Shown here: piece after piece, positions 8,685-57,010 of the stretch
Numbering within the stretch: position 1 is the stretch's first letter
Layout: every line of letters begins with the position of its first letter
Assembly (NCBI RefSeq): GCF_023343835.1
Contig: NC_064433.1
Location: 177,435,076 to 177,499,075, forward strand
Reading direction: 5' to 3'
Source of the DNA: Lagopus muta
Lineage: Eukaryota
Length of the DNA: 64,000 nt
The notes under the pieces: model-generated
Told to the model about the DNA's origin: nothing
The model's database searches: none
What the model saw: only the letters and a program-made list of their open reading frames with translations
Made by a program: the position numbers and the translations under genes

Positions 8685-9130
8685 TGAGGCTCTGGAGCAC
8701 GTCCAGAGAAGGGCAACAGAGCTGTGAGGGGTCTGGAGCACAAGGCTTATGGGGAGCAGCTGAGGGAACTGGGATTGTTTAGCCTGGAGAAGAGGAGGCT
8801 CAGGGGAGACCTTACTGCTCTCTGCAACTGCCTGAAAGGAGGCTGTGATGAGATGGGGGGAATCTCAGCCAATCGGCCACTGGATAACAGCGACAGCACC
8901 AGAGGGAATGGCATTAAGCTGCACCAGGGGAGGTTCGGGTTGTATGTTAGGAACTTCTCAGGAGTAGCAGTGAGGCAGTGGCACAGGCGGCCCAGGGAGG
9001 TGCTGTGCAGTCACCATCCCTGGAGGTGCTCCAGAAACGTGTGGATGCAGCACTGAGGGATGCGGTCGGCGGGCACGGGCTGACGGTTGGACAGGGTGAT
9101 CTTAGAGATCTTTGCCAACCTCAGTGATTC
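8685..9130 (+). mobile_element. CR1 LINE 3' fragment in MPHOSPH8 intron 1, about 500 bp from the CpG island.
   Basis: ORF2 C-terminus [27 protein letters not shown]...[11 protein letters not shown]. It ends in a CR1-like tail. Confidence 0.75.
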
Positions 9131-9631
9131 GGTGAAGGACTCGTATGAAAACATGCAGGCTGCTCTCAGCGGAACGAGAGAAGGCAAGAGAATTCTGCCT
9201 AACACAGCCTGGAGGCAGCCTTATTTCAGCCGGAGAAGGTCCGCCTGCTCGGAGCGGCCCTCCCACAGCCGCGCTGCCCAGCCCGGCACCGCCGCAGCTC
9301 GGGCACAGCGCAGCGCACAGCTTCGCGCCGCCGACAAAAAGAAGTTTGCGAAGAGACGCGGGGTTCCACCGCTCTTTCGGCCGAGGCGGGAAGACGAGCC
9401 GCGGAGCCAGCAGGGCCGAGTAACGCCCGAGCTCTGCACGGCGGCGCCCGGCGATCCCGCACGCGGCACGGGGGCGTAGCCGAGGACGGAACCCGAACCC
9501 GCGCCGGGGCCGCCGCTTTCCGCGGCCCGGTGCCGCCCTCCCGCCGCCGGAGGGCCCAGCAGCCGTTCCCGGTGCCGCCGCGGCCCCCGGAGGGCGGCGA
9601 GCCGTGACGGGAGACGGCGCCGCGCGCTCAC

Positions 9632-9892
9632 CCCCTCGGTCTTCATGTCGAGGATCTTCTCCACTTCGAACACGTCCTCGTCCTCATTTTCGTCGTCCTC
9701 GTCGTCCTCCTCCTCCTCCTCCTCTTCCTCCTCGCTCTCACCGCCGGCGGCCGCCGCCCCGCCCGCAGCGCCGCCGCCATCCACCACCTCGTTTTCCCCG
9801 GCCGCCGCCGCCGCCGTCTCCGTCTCCTCCTCTTCCCCCGCCCCCTCCAGCCTGGCCGCCGCCGCCTCAGCCCCGCTCCTCGCCGCAGCCAT
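9632..9892 (-). CDS. MPHOSPH8: MPHOSPH8 coding exon 1: start codon at 9890-9892, acidic poly-E/D tract, first half of the chromodomain (DVFEVEKILDMKTEG). Donor GTGAGC lies immediately 3' of 9632.
   Basis: Minus-frame translation MAAARSGAEAAAARLEGAGEEEE...EEEEEEEEEDDEDDENEDEDVFEVEKILDMKTEG, then GTGAGC. It matches the human MPP8 N-terminus (...GEDVFEVEKILDMKTEGG). The exon lies in a CpG island. Confidence 0.8.
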
Positions 9893-10100
9893 TTTGGGCC
9901 GAGTTTCAAACGGCGATGGGGAAAAGCGGCTGCGACACCCACGGCAGCCAATGGGCGCCCGGCTGCCGTGACGTCACGGGAGGGGCGGGGCTACCCGTCC
10001 TCGGCGCGCTGCGGGCGGCTGCGCCTTTGGGCGGCGGGCTTCGACGGGCGGATGGGGTCTTCGTGTGGGAAAAAGTGGTGAACCTTTTGTTGCTGCGCTA
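9893..10100 (-). promoter_or_regulatory. MPHOSPH8: MPHOSPH8 core promoter and 5'UTR inside the CpG island (island about 9200-10100). It carries CCAAT (9948-9952), a palindromic CRE TGACGTCA (9969-9976) and an Sp1 GC box GGGGCGGGG (9982-9990).
   Basis: CpG density is very high. The canonical CCAAT/CRE/GC-box cluster lies within about 100 bp upstream of the ATG at 9892. There is no TATA box. Confidence 0.55.
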
Positions 10101-10384
10101 AGCGCTTCTGCCGGTGCCAGAGTGCTAGCAGAGCTGTCCTGGGAGCAGCTATCAAGGAACACCGTCACTCGTGCTGTCCAGCCCGCGTGAAAACTGGCGC
10201 CGTTGGCACGGTTGGAACAGAAGTGAGAACTGCCGTCAGAAAACCTGCTGACAAGGCGGCCGCAAAGGGATGTTGAGCAACTGGGAAACGGCCAGAGAAA
10301 AGCAGCGTTCTGCTCCTCCGGGGCGCGCTGCAGAAGTACAAAGGCATCCAACTGAGGGCACCGGTAGGCTGCATCGTGAAGGTG

Positions 10385-10390
10385 TTTATT
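10385..10390 (-). terminator. PARP4: PARP4 polyadenylation signal (AATAAA on the minus strand), about 265 nt after the stop codon.
   Basis: This is the only AATAAA or ATTAAA on the minus strand between the PARP4 stop (10651-10653) and the MPHOSPH8 CpG island. Confidence 0.5.
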
Positions 10391-10451
10391 AGGGCTTTGC
10401 TAAACGGTAGCCATCAAAACACGCTGCGTTACAGAGAAGGTAGGACTTTGG

Positions 10452-49499: not shown

Positions 49500-50200
49500 T
49501 TACTTCATATGATATGGCTTCACTAATTTAACATAACCTATGATCACCTGCCTTGATCTGCTGGTGATACTTTGCCTAATGCAGCCAAGAATGCTGTTAG
49601 CCTTCTTGGCAGCAAGGGCATACTGATGGCTCACATTCAACGTGTTGTGTACCAGGACCCTGGGTTCTGTTCTGTAAAGCTGTTTTCCAGCTGGGCAACC
49701 CCCAGCATGTACTGGTGCACAGGGTTCTTCCCACTCAGGTGCAGACTTATTGAACCTCAGCTTCCTGTCAGCCTGTTTCTCCAATCTGATCAGGTCTCTC
49801 TGATGACAGCATGACTCTGGTCTATCAGCTGTTCCCCTCAGTTTTGTGTAACCAGCAAACTCGCTGAGGATACATTCTGCCCCATCATCCAGATCATTAA
49901 TGAAGGTGCTGAAGAGGACTGGCCAACATATTGACCACTGAGGCACTCTGCTCCTTGCTGGCCTCCAACAAGACTTTGCACAACAGGTCCTCCAGGCCTG
50001 GTCATTCAGTTTTTGATTCACCTCACTATCCAGACCATAATTCAACAGCTACTCTATGAGAACATTATAGGAAGAAGTGTCAAAGGCCTTACTGAAGTCT
50101 ACACAGACAACAGCAACTGCGCATCTTTCATTTATGAGACCAATCATTTCATTTCAGAAGCTTATCAAACGGGTTAGGCACGACATCCCCGTGACGAATC
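49500..50200 (-). mobile_element. CR1 fragment (reverse-transcriptase region).
   Basis: Minus-strand ORF with ...LAAKKANSILGCIRQSITSRSRQVI..., the CR1 ORF2 RT motif. Confidence 0.55.
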
Positions 50201-50632: not shown

Positions 50633-51699
50633 CTGAAAGACAAGTTACAATTAGAATCGTTATGCACACAAAACTAGTGTTAATCCAAACATTGTTTATT
50701 TGCAATTCATGCTGGTAAAATCCTACAGTGTAAAGGAAACATTTAAAAACACAACATTCTTGGACAGGATTTTAATTGAAACATCTAATTTAGAGACAAA
50801 ATACCTCTGCATTTCCTCCACAGTCAGCAGAGAGGATTCTTTCAGATGACAGCTCAGATGAGCTAAAATATATGTAAGTTGCCTTGAGAGTATTGCCTCC
50901 TATTTATTTTCATGGAAACTACAGCAGATACCAAAAGCACAATAATACTATTCGATAGAGCAAATTCTCAGCTACAAAACATTATTTTTCAACATAGTCA
51001 CCATCATGAGATACGCATTTTTGTCAGTGAGGACAAGAGCTTACATGCTGCTCTTGTAAAAATCTGCACCAGCAGAGGCAGCCCACTGCTGCTGTCACCA
51101 CTGCTGAAATGCACCACCCACCACCTCACTGTACTCACATCAACTGTTTGCTCTCCAGAAACATTCAGCAAGCATTGATTAATTGAAAGGCCCACCTTTG
51201 CACTTCCATGTCAGATGCCATTCTGACAGACTGCCCCCTGCTGCCATCTGTCACATGGCAACAAATGCAATGGAATATTGGTGGGAAGGTTCAGCCTCTA
51301 CTGTCGTACTACTAGCATCAGTCTCTGATGTTGTGGGCCAGCATAATACAGGAGACATTACTTCCAGAGCAGCTCTTGTATGTAACTTCCATCACTGTGC
51401 AGTAACTACAGAGACTGAGGGTGACCAGGCGTCTAATGTTCTGCAGAACTTTTAGAGCACACAGGAGGTCCAATAATGGGGCAAGCTCTATAGCAGCTGA
51501 CTAGTTACAAACCAAAAGCTCTTTGGGAGAATGGTAAAAAAGCTGGTTAGGGTCCTTTAGAATCATAACATGCTTTGGTAGCTTTGTAAGGGTCCTTACA
51601 GCGCTTTACTGGAATCATACATATGCTGAAAGTTAAAACTATCCACATAATTTCAACAGTAGAGTCATGTCCTGGTAGGAGAAACTGAGGACATCTGGG

Positions 51700-51995
51700 T
51701 TGTCCAGCATGGAGGAGGCCAAGATGTGACCTCATTTGTCTCTGTAGCTCCCTGAGGAGGGGATGCAGAGGGAGATAGGTGCTGGGCTCTGCTCCTGGAA
51801 GCAGCACAAAGCTGTACCAAGGGAGGGTCAGACTGGGCATTATGAGACATTTCTGCACTGTGAGGGTGGACAGACACTGGAACAAGCTTCCTAGAGAGAT
51901 GGGTGATGCTCTTTGGCTGCCAGTGTTTGAGGTGCATTTGGATAATAGTCTCAATTATATGCTCTATTTCCTGGTTACACAGGAAAAAACCCTTC
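51700..51995 (+). mobile_element. CR1 3' fragment in PARP4 intron 1.
   Basis: ORF2 C-terminus ...RHFCTVRVDRHWNKLPREMGDALWLPVFEVHLDNSLNYML. Confidence 0.6.
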
Positions 51996-52210
51996 CTGGT
52001 TCTTTTGGAGAGAGAGAATATTGCTTTTATTTTTTATTTATTTTTAAGGAGACATTTCAGTACTACAGAGATAGATGAATTGGAAGCATAAGCAGAATAT
52101 TTCCAGTGAAATATTGAACAGAGAAATATTTCTCTATATGAAGAACTCCATAATACTTTCAACATTTGGTATTTTCCTTCAGAGATCTCAGAAATGAATC
52201 TGGAACTTAC

Positions 52211-52336
52211 TTTGTTATTAAGCACAAAATTAATTACTCCACCATTTTCTGTTATGCATGCTTTCAGGCTGTTCCTCTTCTGAATGGGCAAGTGCTTCAC
52301 TTTAATAAAGAACACACAGTTTGCAAAGATTGTCAT
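52211..52336 (-). CDS. PARP4: PARP4 first coding exon (start codon at 52334-52336).
   Basis: MTIFANCVFFIKVKHLPIQKRNSLKACITENGGVINFVLNNK, then GTAAGT. It matches the human PARP4 N-terminus MVMGIFANCIFCLKVKYLPQQQKKKLQTDIKENGGKFSFSLN. Confidence 0.7.
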
Positions 52337-54369
52337 TGCTCTCCTGTTAAAACAGAGAAGGGTTTGTTTTTTTCTTTTGTCTAAGAAATCTTTATTTCCT
52401 ACCACCCACCTAAGATTTTACTTATGGAGAGAGAACAACATAATTCATTTGAATTTGGGGTTCCAAGAAAACCTAGAAAATCATCGCTATCAGATGCATT
52501 TCTATATATGCCTGTGTAATCTGAACTATAGGAAAGGCCAAATCAACTACTGCCCTATGCATCTGAGAGAACCAGCAATGTGCTGGTTGAGGTGAGGCAT
52601 ATAGCAGCTCGAGGATCAAAGAGCACATTAAATTGTTATATACTTGTATTTTGTGCCTCTTGTGTTTTACTGTCTGGCATTAGCAGTACATGTGTCATAA
52701 AGTACTCTCTGCTCATGCACAGAATAAACCCTGTAACTCTTTTTTCCATAAGGAGGAGGTTTTCACAAGATACTACATTATCTGAGATGCTAACAATCTT
52801 TTAAGATGCAGACTTATAACTTGGCTCAAGTAGATTAATTTGAGTCACATACAAAAGAAAATGTGCCACTGCCAAAAGCTTCCGATATTAAAAGCGTAGA
52901 GGGCACTGCCTCCTTTTGCACCGATCTCTGCATGCACTGACTTCGCTGCAAATTCTCTACAGCAGACTCTGGACATTGCTGAAATTTCCACAGAAGTCAC
53001 CTCCTCAGGAAATAATGGATTCCATTTGCACAGCCTAACCCAAAAGATTATTAGGAGGTTATTGAAATACATACAAGCCGTCACAAGCCCTGCCAACACA
53101 GTCCTGGAAACTCAAGAAGCAACTGAATTGTTTGTGGTGCAAAACTCCACAAAAATATTTTATATGACACTTCCTTATGAAAGTTATACTGCTAAGGACT
53201 AGGAACAAATACTGAGAGAACTGATCTGTAAGTAAACTTTAAATGAGCCAGTAAGAGGAAAGGAAAGCTTGAGGGAAGGGCAGATTCACTTCCTCAAAGT
53301 TTGCCTGCAAAGTGAAGTTCCCCCCACCTAGCAAACAAAGCTTGTCTCTGCTCCCAGCGTGACAGCTGTCCAATGACTCCTGATCCCACTTCTCTCTGTA
53401 TGTTTTAGGTGAAAGATGGCACTCACCTGCTCAGGCAGTTCCCTGCCTGAAGGACCTTCTGCTTCCCCAGTAGAGTGAGGTGCAAGGGAAGAGCCTCAGT
53501 GGTGGGAGGGAGGATGGGCTAAGGCAGCTCACACCCACCTGAACATCGTCCGAGGGGACAGCAGCAACAGTTGTGACCCTGACAAATAAACAAACCGAGT
53601 GACCAAGTGACGTGCAGCCTTCTGCGGAATAAGGAACACTAACACTTCCGGGGCTTGAGGGAGGAGGAAACTCACTGTTAAAGTGCAAGTGAACTTTGAA
53701 AGATGCTCCAGACAGCAGGAAGTAAAGCTGAAACCTCTTTAGTCTGTACCCAGCAGCTTTTCTTTCTGCTGAGTGAAGTAAGCTTTATTCCCTCTCATTG
53801 CTGATGAATGCTGCCACCCAATATTAGCCTCTCTTCTTTAGCCAATTTCCCCTGAGGATCAAACTTATCAAGGAATTTTAGCAAAGTGTTTGTCTTACTC
53901 TTCTTGAACTGCAGTTTCCAGAATTCAAAATCAGAATAGAAAACGACAACATTTAATGTGAGAGTGAAGAATGGTGAACAGTTTTATAACTGGAATAAGG
54001 CGCTGATGCAGCACTAGGTAAGAAGCTGTGCAATGGAGAGTTGCTGACAACTGTCACTGGTTTAATTCTTGCAGTTTTAATTTATCTCAGTGGAGATCCA
54101 TAATTCCCTAATGACCTCAGAAGAATTTCACACAGGTACATGAGCTTGTAATTATGATTGGCTTGCAAGTTTGGGATCATCATTAGAGATAGATTACGCT
54201 TTTGACAGAGGAGAGCACCAAAGAGAATTTTGTCCTCATTCAAAAATAGACGAAGAATAACCTGCAACTCAATGTGGGCCTTCAGTGTGCAGGGATACTG
54301 AATTTTCATGAGGATGTTAATGCATTAAAGGTGACGTTGTGCTTGAAAAGGAAGGGGTAGAAATCCTTG

Positions 54370-54402
<33 letters not shown>

Positions 54403-55189
54403 TGTTTTTAATATATATTTCCAGCACTGTAGCTTCCCACTCTTAATGCAGAACTCAGCTTCAGGAAAGCTGTGCAGGTGATATATTCATAACTGGCTTA
54501 AGTGCAGGAAAGGTGATGGGAAGTTTGGAAAGAGCCACAGCTGATGTGAGATTTAGCAGTTGGCAGCTGAAAGAGCTGCCCTGGTTTTATGCAGCCGGGA
54601 GCTCGGTCCTGTACCAACGTGCAAAGAGGAGCAAAACCCGGCTCTAGCTGGCAATGTGTCACCAGGCTTTGGAGTGAGATTCTCCACTGTTTGCTGGAGC
54701 TCTGAGGAAACTGTTTTGCTCAGTAAGAGAATTCCTAAAGAGCAAAATGTCAAAAACTCTCTGGTGATGGTGACAGAACGTGAGGGAATGGCACAGAGCT
54801 GTGTTGGGGTGAGGGGCAGGTCAGGTTGGGAGTCTGGAAAAGGTTTTTCAACATAGATTAATGGAGTATCCTGAATTGAGAGGGGTCCGTAAGGATCACT
54901 GAGCCTAACTCCTGGATCTGCACAGGAACAGCCTGCCCAGGGCAGTGGGCACAGCTCTGAGCTGCCAGAGCTCAGGGAGCGTTTGGACAGTGCTTCCAGA
55001 CATTGGGACTGGCTTTTGGGTGGTCCTCTGTGGAGCCAGGGGTTGGACTCAGTGATCCTTATGGGCCCCTTCCCATTGGGAAGGATGGAAAGAAGCCCAG
55101 GTGGTTCAATGACTCCGTAGGCTTTCTGCCACTTATCCTTCCACTCCACCCTTACTGCAGCTATTTAAAATTAAAAGGGCAGAGGCAGC

Positions 55190-55900
55190 TACAAGGAAAG
55201 CACGCTGAAAGCGCACAGCCCCGCCCGCCCAGCAAAGGCACGGCTAGCGCAGATTGCGGGTTCGTTCCGCGGTCGCCTCCTCACTGCCGCCCCCACAGGG
55301 CGGGAAGGCGGGGAGCGGCCCCTCCCCCAGCAACGGGGCGGGGCAGGCATCACCGCCTTCGTGCGCCTGCCCCCGCCCCTCAGAGGCCTAGGCAGGGCTG
55401 GAGGGTTTGCAGTGTCAACCTATTAACGGCATCCTCGCCGCTGAGCATTTTGGGAGCTGTAGTCGAGCGCAGAGAGATCGCTACGGGGCTGCAGGAGGCG
55501 GGCGGCGGCTGGGGACTACAAATCCCGGCGTGCCCCGCGCCGCGCGGCGTCCAGCCTGTGGCGGCGGGAGGCTGTGCTATGGCGGCGCGTTTGTAACTGC
55601 GAGCGGCGGGAGGTCGCGGCGCTGAGTGGCGGCGCTGCTGCGGCGGCGGCCTCGGCTTCGGCCATTTGGAATATTACGCTCTGGGGAAGCTTTGAGCGTT
55701 TCGAAATCTGCTCGTACGGAGTTCTGTAGGAGTTCCGGAAGGGTTCCTGTGGGGATCCCGAAGTGCCGCCGGGCGGTGATGGTGGTGGGAAGAGGAGTGA
55801 GAAGCGAACGCGCAGCTGTTTGTGGAGTTACCGCGGGAAGGTTAAGTGCGAGTTGAAATATGCACAGTAAACCGATCGTGTTCACTTGGGCATCTCTGCG
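55190..55900. promoter_or_regulatory. CENPJ: CpG island at the CENPJ 5' end. It is probably a bidirectional promoter that also serves PARP4.
   Basis: CpG density is very high, with several GC boxes (CCCCGCCC at about 55222 and GGGGCGGGG at about 55336). It lies immediately upstream of the CENPJ first coding exon. No other CpG island exists near the PARP4 5' end. Confidence 0.6.
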
Positions 55901-56151
55901 GCGTTGCATTAGTACGAGGATTTGTGGCTTGACTGCTTCTTATAAACACGATCGGCTGGTTTTAAGAGTGACTTCCCGATGCTGGGAGTCTCTTCCTGTA
56001 GATTTTTTTCTTTTATCTGCTTAATTTCTCGGAGCTAAAAACAAGTGAGCATCCACCCCTGATACTTGTGACTGCACCTTTTACTCCCCTGGCGCTACAC
56101 TATGTTATGTTAATGCTGCATCAGCAATTGCGTTGGAATGTAATTTACAGG

Positions 56152-56541
56152 ATGCCGACTGTTGAAGAGCTGAGTAGTGAACAAAACTTCATTGCACACT
56201 GGATGTCCAGTAATTCCCGTGCTGGTGTCTTATTAGATCCTCATTTTACTGGATTAAAAATCACCACAGAAAGTCTGTTACCTGGACCTGAAAGCATCAC
56301 GGCTTTCCCCGGTGAAGTGCAGAATCTCTTAGACAGCTGTTCTGTAAGTGAGGACTCCTTGAGTGAAGAGCAATTGCTTGAGTCTGGCAGCTCCTGTGCA
56401 CTTCAGCAAAATAGCACTGAAATGTCTTTTCCAGCAACAGCATATAATGTAGGAAGCTCTAAAGCAGACTTCGGCCACAGTGAAAAGGATGCTCAGAATA
56501 AATCTGATTGCAATGATCCTCTCTTACAAAAGCTTGAACAG
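56152..56541 (+). CDS. CENPJ: CENPJ first coding exon (ATG at 56152, two nt after the acceptor tttacag|G at 56150/56151).
   Basis: MPTVEELSSEQNFIAHWMSSNSRAGVLLDPHFTGLKITTESLLPGPESITAFPGEV...NDPLLQKLEQ (130 codons), then GTAATA. It matches the human CENPJ N-terminus ([32 protein letters not shown]...DPLFKKLEQ). Confidence 0.8.
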
Positions 56542-56609
56542 GTAATAAATTTTAAAAATTCTAGAATTTCTTGATATTCATAAATTAAGGTATATTTTGT
56601 TCCTGTGCA

Positions 56610-57010
56610 TCCATGGAATGGAACACCTCTCCTATGAGAACAGGCTGAGAGAGCTGGGGCTGTTCAGCCTGGAGAAGAGAAGGCTTTCAGTATCTAAAGA
56701 GGAGCTACAGGAAAGAAGGGGACAGATTCTTTAGTGGGGTATGTGAAATTAGAACAAGGAGAAATGGCTTCAAGCTTAAAGAGGGGAGATTTAGGTTGGA
56801 TTTAAGGAAAAAGGCTTTAACAGTGGGGGTGGTGAGGCACTGGCACAGGTTGCCCAGAGATGTTGTTGATGCCCCATCCCTGGAGACTTTCAGGGTAAGG
56901 CTGGATCAGGCCCTGGGCAATCTGATCGAGCTGTGCATGTCTCTGTTTGTTGCAGGGGAGCTGGACAGATAAAAGAAACTTTAAAGGGCCTTTCCAACTC
57001 TAAGTAGATT
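56610..57010 (+). mobile_element. CR1 3' fragment in a CENPJ intron.
   Basis: ...[20 protein letters not shown]...KLKEGRFRLDLRKKALTVGVVRHWHRLPRDVVDAPSLETFRVRLDQALGNLIEL. Confidence 0.75.

Follow-up and report, generated by a model that had tools for sequence, protein, structure and literature searches.

Transcription of avian PARP4 probably begins within a CpG island that the gene shares head-to-head with CENPJ, and the exon carrying the PARP4 start codon is then probably an internal one. Within the window, which is the whole 64,000-nucleotide stretch of Lagopus muta DNA analysed here, this reading is supported by a strong and invariant acceptor upstream of the start codon, the lack of CpG and of a conserved TATA element at that exon, a divergent pair of SBS2 motifs in the island, a flip of GC skew at this pair and a conserved head-to-head gene arrangement. 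The acceptor, the island and the motif pair, together with their conservation, are read directly from the DNA. The first-pass annotation had proposed a non-coding PARP4 exon 1 inside the CENPJ island and hence a bidirectional promoter; its general model is the best supported one, and the particular donor it named is not sustained.

PARP4 lies on the minus strand and CENPJ on the plus strand with their 5' ends facing, and their start codons are separated by 3.8 kb (Table 1). The conserved CENPJ first coding exon is carried by 18 genomic ORFs of other birds, and its ATG at 56152 sits only 1 nt past the acceptor, so CENPJ must have its own non-coding first exon upstream, in the island. The PARP4 and CENPJ transcription start sites (TSSs) would be less than 1 kb apart only if PARP4 also has an exon in the island. 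The adjacency of the two genes is retained in a distant bird (L022), where the CENPJ exon, the island and PARP4-proximal intron blocks occupy a single 3.9-kb contig, as well as in goat; in human, CENPJ and PARP4 are presumably no longer neighbours. MPHOSPH8 follows at 9673-5990, and the order of genes in the window matches that of goat chromosome 12 (RNF17, CENPJ, PARP4, MPHOSPH8; PMC11874128), a likeness in gene order to the mammalian CENPJ-PARP4-MPHOSPH8 neighbourhood.

Table 1. Features of the PARP4-CENPJ interval in window coordinates; a slash within a sequence marks a splice junction.
Feature	Position	Strand	Details
PARP4 coding exons	52336 down to ~10660	-	start codon and further exons downstream
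PARP4 first coding exon	52211-52343	-	7 nt 5' UTR (GAGAGCA), ATG 52336-52334, 42 codons, donor AAA/gtaagt
3' splice site of PARP4 ATG exon (predicted)	52344-52365	-	cccttctctgttttaacAG, AG at 52345-52344
Alternative leader exon or weak promoter (candidate)	53427-53680	-	ETS CCGGAAGTG 53651-53643; CRE-like TGACGTG 53608-53614
Splice sites of that segment (candidate)	acceptors 53621, 53578; donor exon ends 53539, 53427	-	donors TTCAG/GTGGGT (end 53539) and GAGCAG/GTGAGT (end 53427)
Conserved blocks C and D	54562-54756		C 54562-54624, D 54663-54756; downstream of island in PARP4 direction
Inverted pair of CR1-3'-end-like fragments	54860-55090		reverse-orientation matches; PARP4-side edge of island
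CpG island between PARP4 and CENPJ	55101-55900		GC 0.64, CpG o/e 0.97, 77 CpG
Conserved block B	55121-55239	-	contains alternative donor TTTAAATAGCTGCA/GTAAGGG, exon end 55156, 5.24 bits
Candidate donor of first-pass annotation, GGCGGCA/GTGAGG	55279-55291	-	exon would end 55285; 4.78 bits
Two GC boxes	55335-55379		GGGGCGGGG at 55335, CCCCGCCCC at 55371; PARP4 side of SBS pair
SBS2-type ZNF143/THAP11 motif facing PARP4	55439-55463	-	ACTACAGCTCCCAAAATGCTCAGCG
SBS2-type motif facing CENPJ	55515-55539	+	ACTACAAATCCCGGCGTGCCCCGCG
YY1-like ATGGCGGC	55579-55586	+	conserved as GCCGCCAT in window, L014, L012
CENPJ first coding exon	56151-56541 (end approximate)	+	acceptor tttacag/G, ATG 56152

A predicted 3' splice site, both strong and invariant in four bird lineages, lies directly upstream of the PARP4 start codon. 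The sequence across this site reads ...aaacccttctctgttttaacag/GAGAGCAATG, placing the acceptor cccttctctgttttaacag/GAGAGCA-ATG 7 nt ahead of the ATG. Scored with a simple position weight matrix, it reaches 11.8 bits, which corresponds to the 99.4th percentile of all 4602 minus-strand AGs and exceeds the median of 10.4 bits for approximated real PARP4 acceptors. The pyrimidine-rich stretch TT(C/T)TCTnT(T/C)TTAACAGGAG is invariant in the window, L001, L006 and L025, and the tract TTAACAG/GAG is likewise unchanged in four bird lineages, against otherwise divergent upstream sequence. The exon that follows encodes a peptide opening MTIFANCVFFIKVKHLPIQKRNSLKACITENGGVINFVLNNK, is present in genomic ORFs of four other bird lineages, aligns with what we take to be the N-terminus of human PARP4, and ends at 52211 in a donor of 9.46 bits. 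With such an acceptor the PARP4 first coding exon looks internal, which would most likely place the start of the gene in the island common with CENPJ, 3 kb away.

The surroundings of this exon are poor in promoter-like sequence. Each 200-nt interval starting between 51700 and 52200 contains 0 CpG, the GC content of those starting between 51900 and 52300 is 0.28-0.35, and a CR1-like 1.2-kb stretch (50784-51965), which presumably represents a CR1 3' end and is absent from a related species, adjoins the exon. The earlier description of the locus is thereby borne out in its placement of the initiator methionine at 52336, in the AT-rich and CpG-poor context of the ATG flanked by a CR1 fragment, and in the lack of promoter-like sequence there, with neither CpG nor a conserved TATA. 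It was also right that an acceptor lies just 5' of the ATG; the string quoted for it, ttgtttttattaaggag, is a misreading that is not found near 52336 even when 3 mismatches are allowed.

The window contains two CpG islands, at 55101-55900 and 9001-10400, and the former is the only one within 40 kb on its side. It had been placed at 55190-55900 as the nearest island and the driver of CENPJ, and measurement extends it to 55101. Equivalent islands are found in L012, L013, L014, L016 and L022. The island is GC-rich and lies between the two genes, and its conserved SBS core is free of TATA; TTTAAATAG is located at the island edge, in block B. With the SBS2 consensus taken from PMC3627581, the 64 kb yield two M4/SBS2 matches (0.38 expected), both inside the island, 52 nt apart and in divergent orientation. 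The core ACTACAGCTCCCA of the PARP4-facing motif is invariant in the window, L016, L014, L012/13 and L022, and the CENPJ-facing pattern is exact in L012/13 and L022, with a near match that misses the pattern in L016 and L014. Relative to the known SBS2 sites of THAP11-HCFC1-ZNF143, alias the M4 motif ACTAYRNNNCCCR (Ngondo-Mbongo et al. 2013, PMC3627581), both island sites, as sequence matches only, fit ACTACAnnTCCCR and keep the conserved C at SBS position 12, whereas the plus-strand site departs from the known pattern in those two species. Pol II forms two peaks flanking SBS2 loci (PMC3627581), and bidirectional promoters are enriched in SBS sites, which suffice for activity in both directions (PMC3082894).

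Further candidate elements of the bidirectional-promoter class accompany this pair. The motifs enriched in the class are ZNF143/SBS, YY1, GABPA, NRF1 and Sp1 (PMC3082894), and the island presents, as predicted matches, two SBS2, one YY1-like ATGGCGGC and two GC boxes, the last of which may be read as Sp1 sites at 55335 and 55371. The YY1-like site is also present in L016 and L022, and it probably marks the region just downstream of a putative CENPJ TSS, YY1 motifs being enriched just downstream of TSSs (bioRxiv 10.1101/2024.05.13.594008). Base composition is mirrored about the same centre. In five species, the CENPJ side of the island has a GC skew between +0.2 and +0.45 and the PARP4 side a mostly mildly negative one (about +0.05 to -0.29), with the sign flipping at the SBS pair in all five. 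The negative values towards PARP4 are far smaller in magnitude than the positive ones towards CENPJ, a pattern that would also be compatible with an unstable upstream antisense transcript.

These features resemble the known class of Staf/ZNF143 bidirectional CpG-island promoters (Anno et al. 2011, PMC3082894), exemplified by TMEM186-PMM2 and by the BUB1B fragment with two SBS and ACTACA. The likeness comprises head-to-head genes, a TATA-less island, SBS with the ACTACA extension lying in between, a YY1-like site, GC boxes and mirrored base composition. In contrast to that class, the SBS2 pair here is divergent, with one member directed at each gene and only 52 nt between them, a layout conserved in birds. 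The arrangement as a whole is an ordinary one for two genes and would represent a routine bidirectional CpG-island promoter.

In the mechanism that these elements suggest, the single TATA-less island at 55101-55900 would drive both PARP4 and CENPJ from a core formed by the divergent ZNF143/THAP11 (SBS2) pair. Transcription would start on either side of the pair: that of CENPJ some tens of bases to its right, close to the YY1-like site at 55579, and that of PARP4, by inference, to its left on the minus strand, roughly at 55300-55440. From there PARP4 would make at least one short non-coding exon, ending at one or another of the candidate donors, and this leader would be spliced over a CR1-rich intron of about 3 kb to the acceptor at 52345/52344; a further non-coding exon at about 53.5 kb may be included.

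The island candidates for the 5' splice site of this upstream exon (55354, 55285 and 55156) are all weak, and none is conserved in all species. The donor GGCGGCAGTGAGG named in the first-pass annotation does occur, once, at 55279-55291 of the minus strand; its splicing to the PARP4 acceptor finds little backing, the site being weak (4.8 bits) and its position not conserved. It ranks at the 92nd percentile of minus-strand GTs, and of the 15 GTs on the PARP4 side of the island two others resemble it, so that its presence does not exceed chance expectation. It is kept in L016, which is 94% identical there and hence uninformative, and has no counterpart in L012 or L022. The alternative donor at 55156 falls within block B, which is 74% identical to L014 and 71% to L012 amid flanking island sequence that is unalignable; L016 and L014 retain its GT, which L012 has lost. 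Between the SBS and block B, neither L012 nor L022 has a donor reaching 4.5 bits, and the minus-strand donors of the island reach at most 5.2 bits, without positional conservation. No one of the exon ends 55285, 55156 and 55354 is preferred by the evidence. The test of donor strength has little power, because the CENPJ side, which serves as a positive control with an obligatory first exon, likewise shows island donors of only 3-5 bits, its 7.56-bit site at 56045 lying past the island edge. Strength and conservation taken together are similarly of low power, as L016 (94% identical over the island) keeps all the sites and the distant species keep neither candidate.

Stronger donors are found in the 53.43-53.68 kb segment, and they form the basis of the foremost alternative, which we consider unlikely: PARP4 would start at a small promoter of its own at about 53.65 kb, a leader exon ending at 53539 or 53427 would be spliced to 52343, and minus-strand RNA from the island would be a short upstream antisense product. 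The two donors score 9.6 bits (53539) and 12.15 bits (53427), the latter being the best minus-strand GT in the window, and far surpass those of the island; they lie alongside ETS and CRE motifs and acceptors of 10.1 and 10.6 bits at 53621 and 53578. The minus strand carries a decoy donor scoring 9 bits or more roughly every 3 kb, and one or two here are near expectation. A local CpG cluster (6 CpG per 200 nt, o/e 0.44; 8 and 0.6 in L001) rises above the background of 0.1-0.2 but stays well short of the 200-nt CpG-island criteria. The segment is not a repeat within the window and is 90-96% identical in L001/L004, with 91-96% for L001, whose mean is 87%; however, a local 90% says little in a relative with 87% identity overall, and the segment is seen only in close relatives, not being detected in chicken-like or other distant birds, including L022, whose sequence spans the whole interval. 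Splicing of 53539 to 52343 would bring an ATG at 53545 into frame with the main one, giving MFRRA-MTIF as read from the sequence. In a milder version, the segment may be an alternative or internal non-coding exon of transcripts initiated in the island.

Additional conserved sequence lies between the island and this segment. Blocks C and D have collinear counterparts, 73-80% identical, in L012, L022 and L014, and the 150 nt at 54431-54580 are almost unchanged in a relative whose overall identity is 87%. Instead of serving as PARP4 leader, blocks B, D and C with 54431-54580 could be part of a distinct conserved avian unit, either a divergent non-coding transcript or a regulatory module; PARP4 would then start at a lineage-specific promoter near 53.65 kb. 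This arrangement appears improbable. The blocks are not known RNA genes, given that an Rfam search of 52000-56200 returned nothing credible, all matches falling below a third of the gathering score. Sliding identity against L001 singles out no exon in 52.4-54.9 kb. In the PARP4 sense, no AATAAA or ATTAAA occurs for 1051 nt after the SBS, an absence that agrees with the island model but carries no information over so short a stretch; in L022 an AATAAA occurs at +321.

A model in which PARP4 begins with the ATG exon, from a CpG-poor tissue-type promoter with a TSS no more than about 200 nt upstream of 52343 and with the apparent acceptor unused, is very improbable. In its favour, about 80 nt upstream of the ATG, including CTTAGGTGG, are conserved in four lineages, blocks 52428-52518 and 52677-52720 are conserved in the distant L022, and a TATA-like CATATATAG is present at about 52505-52498 in the window and L001, but the TATA-like element near 52500 is not kept in L022 or L006, a proximal TSS would place a short upstream ORF (ATGAATTATGTTGTTCTCTCTCCATAA) in the leader, the invariant pyrimidine tract with AG 7 nt before the ATG has the appearance of a 3' splice site, and broadly expressed genes such as PARP4, which encodes a vault component, normally use CpG-island promoters. 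A conserved proximal TATA promoter for PARP4 built on ATATATAG at about 52500 was considered separately and rejected, the element being missing in L022 and L006.

The spliced peptide of PARP4 exons 1 and 2 has five matches in the protein collection, all of them unspliced genomic ORFs reading into the intron, and a concatenated six-frame translation of 55100-55960, used to search for island-spanning contigs, gave 8000 candidates, none significant. The literature search found no paper on the PARP4-CENPJ promoter or on PARP4 first-exon structure.

If PARP4 does start in the island shared with CENPJ, the result refines one gene model only, namely the 5' exon and TSS of bird PARP4, and supplies a further instance of a ZNF143-type bidirectional promoter, bearing on no open question. 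With such a promoter, a centriole gene and a vault-particle gene would be expected to be co-regulated through one island, and this could matter when variants of the promoter or knock-outs of either gene are interpreted.

The PARP4-side edge of the island is bordered by the inverted pair of fragments at 54860-55090, which we take to be of CR1 origin. Contigs of relatives break near this pair, that of L001 ending at about 54977 and that of L016 starting at about 55033.

PARP4 and CENPJ probably share an ordinary ZNF143-type bidirectional CpG-island promoter, a well-known kind of feature; in this most likely reading, PARP4 would start left of a pair of SBS2-type motifs (the SBS pair) in the island between the two genes, and a short non-coding exon would be spliced to 52343. 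The first coding exon of PARP4 comprises 42 codons (MTIFANCVFFIKVKHLPIQKRNSLKACITENGGVINFVLNNK; donor AAA/gtaagt, slashes marking splice junctions) that align with the N-terminus of human PARP4, and about 28 further minus-strand PARP4 exons follow downstream, reaching 10660. CENPJ's first coding exon (MPTVEELSSEQNFIAHWMSSNSRAGVLL...), with its acceptor 1 nt before the ATG, is backed by 18 homologous genomic ORFs of other birds. MPHOSPH8 lies below PARP4, also on the minus strand, and the order CENPJ, PARP4, MPHOSPH8 is that of goat chromosome 12 (PMC11874128). Additionally, MPHOSPH8 exon 1 (VFEVEKILDMKTEG) sits in the second CpG island, which starts just a few hundred bases past the last detected PARP4 coding exon, leaving little room between the 3' end of PARP4 and the promoter of MPHOSPH8.

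Positions within the window of genes, islands, motifs and candidate splice sites
Feature	Positions	Strand	Sequence, score or content
CpG island between PARP4 and CENPJ	55101-55900		GC 0.64, o/e 0.97
Second CpG island	9001-10400		
CENPJ first coding exon	ATG 56152	plus	
PARP4 first coding exon	ATG 52336, end 52211	minus	
MPHOSPH8 chromodomain exons (exon 1, next exon)	9673-9632, 6145-5990	minus	
Block A	55419-55596		two M4 motif matches
SBS2-type site, PARP4-facing	55439-55463	minus	ACTACAGCTCCCAAAATGCTCAGCG
SBS2-type site	55515-55539	plus	ACTACAAATCCCGGCGTGCCCCGCG
Candidate donor of the first-pass annotation	GT 55284	minus	4.78 bits
Candidate donor in conserved block B (55121-55239)	GT 55155	minus	TTTAAATAGCTGCA/GTAAGGG, 5.24 bits
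Segment between island and ATG exon	53427-53680	minus	ETS, CRE-like, CpG cluster, acceptors, donors

By the usual criteria the window contains only these two CpG islands. Island-spanning contigs of four other species (L016, L014, L012/13 and L022) were obtained through the CENPJ exon ORF; L016 is 94% identical to the window over the aligned island stretch, and only blocks A and B of the island are alignable across distant species. Block A holds the only two matches in the entire 64 kb (0.38 expected) to M4, a ZNF143/THAP11-type motif (ACTAYRNNNCCCR). These matches are divergent, lie 52 nt apart and both extend, as sequence matches, to full SBS2-type ZNF143/THAP11 sites, each carrying CCCR and, at SBS position 12, the conserved C of the published consensus (PMC3627581, PMC3082894). 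The PARP4-facing site is invariant in 5/5 species. Each of the five also shows a sign switch of GC skew at the SBS pair, from mostly mildly negative on its left to strongly positive on its right. Bidirectional promoters are enriched for SBS sites, which suffice for bidirectional activity (PMC3082894). Moreover, a YY1-like ATGGCGGC at 55579 is conserved, and because YY1 motifs are enriched immediately downstream of TSSs (bioRxiv 10.1101/2024.05.13.594008), the putative CENPJ start is placed at ~55550-55580. A 3.9-kb span of L022 contains the CENPJ exon together with the island and two PARP4-proximal blocks, whose counterparts in the window lie 90-380 nt upstream of the PARP4 ATG, so the head-to-head arrangement is old in birds.

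Splice-site scores come from a simple position weight matrix, applied to all AG sites. Of the 15 GTs in the PARP4-side part of the island, only 3 exceed 4.5 bits (55353, 55284 and 55155). The donor string proposed in the first-pass annotation, GGCGGCAGTGAGG, has a single minus-strand occurrence (55279-55291) and is unlikely to be the particular donor used by PARP4. GT 55155 is retained in L016 and L014 and missing in L012; neither L012 nor L022 has a donor of at least 4.5 bits ahead of block B. CENPJ-side island donors, where a first exon is required, likewise score only 3-5 bits, so the donor-score test is low in power.

A separate PARP4 start near 53.65 kb is doubtful, even though the intermediate segment there combines a perfectly matching ETS site (CCGGAAGTG), a local cluster of CpGs and a CRE-like TGACGTG with acceptors of 10.1 and 10.6 bits and donors of 9.6 and 12.15 bits, the latter the best in the window. 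The segment has no repeat copy elsewhere in the window and is kept at 90-96% identity in the close relatives L001/L004, but no counterpart is detected in distant birds, and decoy donors reaching 9 bits or more arise about once every 3 kb. It may serve as an alternative promoter peculiar to this lineage or as a non-coding internal exon, or have no role at all. Joining a candidate exon end at 53539 to 52343 would bring the ATG in GACGATGTTCAG/ (53547-53539, minus strand) into frame, putting MFRRA ahead of MTIFANC; L001/L004 have this ATG too.

That transcription begins at the ATG exon itself is very unlikely. Acceptor, conservation and TATA pattern there point to a 3' splice site rather than a start, though they fall short of proof. 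As the first-pass annotation held, the surroundings are CpG-poor and AT-rich, with no CpG in any 200-nt window starting at 51700-52200 and GC of 0.28-0.35 in those starting at 51900-52300. The polypyrimidine-rich acceptor string it quoted does not occur near 52336 even with 3 mismatches, and aaacccttctctgttttaacag/GAGAGCAATG is found there on the minus strand instead; its observation is thus right in substance and wrong in that one sequence. The actual acceptor scores 11.8 bits, which exceeds the median (10.4) of the real, approximated PARP4 acceptors and places it at the 99.4th percentile of the 4602 AGs on the minus strand. In orthologous contigs retrieved via genomic ORFs running from the PARP4 exon into the intron, the tract TT(C/T)TCTnT(T/C)TTAACAG/GAG is invariant in 4 lineages (window, L001, 87% identical to the window, L006 and L025), and their alignment fades ~80 nt upstream of the ATG. 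A TATA-like CATATATAG at ~52500 has a counterpart only in the close relative and not in L022 or L006. A donor-like CTTAG/GTGGG (7.9 bits; 52401-52415, minus strand), invariant in 4 bird lineages, lies 66 nt upstream of the acceptor, too near for a normal intron, and may be part of a branch-point region or another signal.

On the PARP4 side, blocks C (54562-54624) and D (54663-54756) are collinear with the island core and retain 73-80% identity in the distant birds L012, L022 and L014. An acceptor-like sequence, TTTTGCTCTTTAG/G (10.3 bits), opens block D and is missing in L012, and 150 nt at 54431-54580, partly overlapping block C, are 98-100% identical to L001 against a regional mean of 87%. 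In the intron that follows the PARP4 ATG exon, a stretch of 1.2 kb (50784-51965) that L001-L003 lack looks like a CR1 insertion; further CR1 ORF remnants lie at 49500-49900 and 56597-56972. An inverted pair of CR1-3'-end-like fragments (54860-54920 and 55033-55085) marks the island edge, and relatives' short-read contigs break exactly there (L001 ends at ~54977, L016 starts at ~55033). The bird PARP4 and CENPJ genomic contigs L006-L011 come from metagenome assemblies (JGI 3300005287, 3300000035; ENA ERZ27241762) and bear prokaryote-style gene calls; they are probably host chicken DNA, and L006 is probably chicken because its samples are gut metagenomes.
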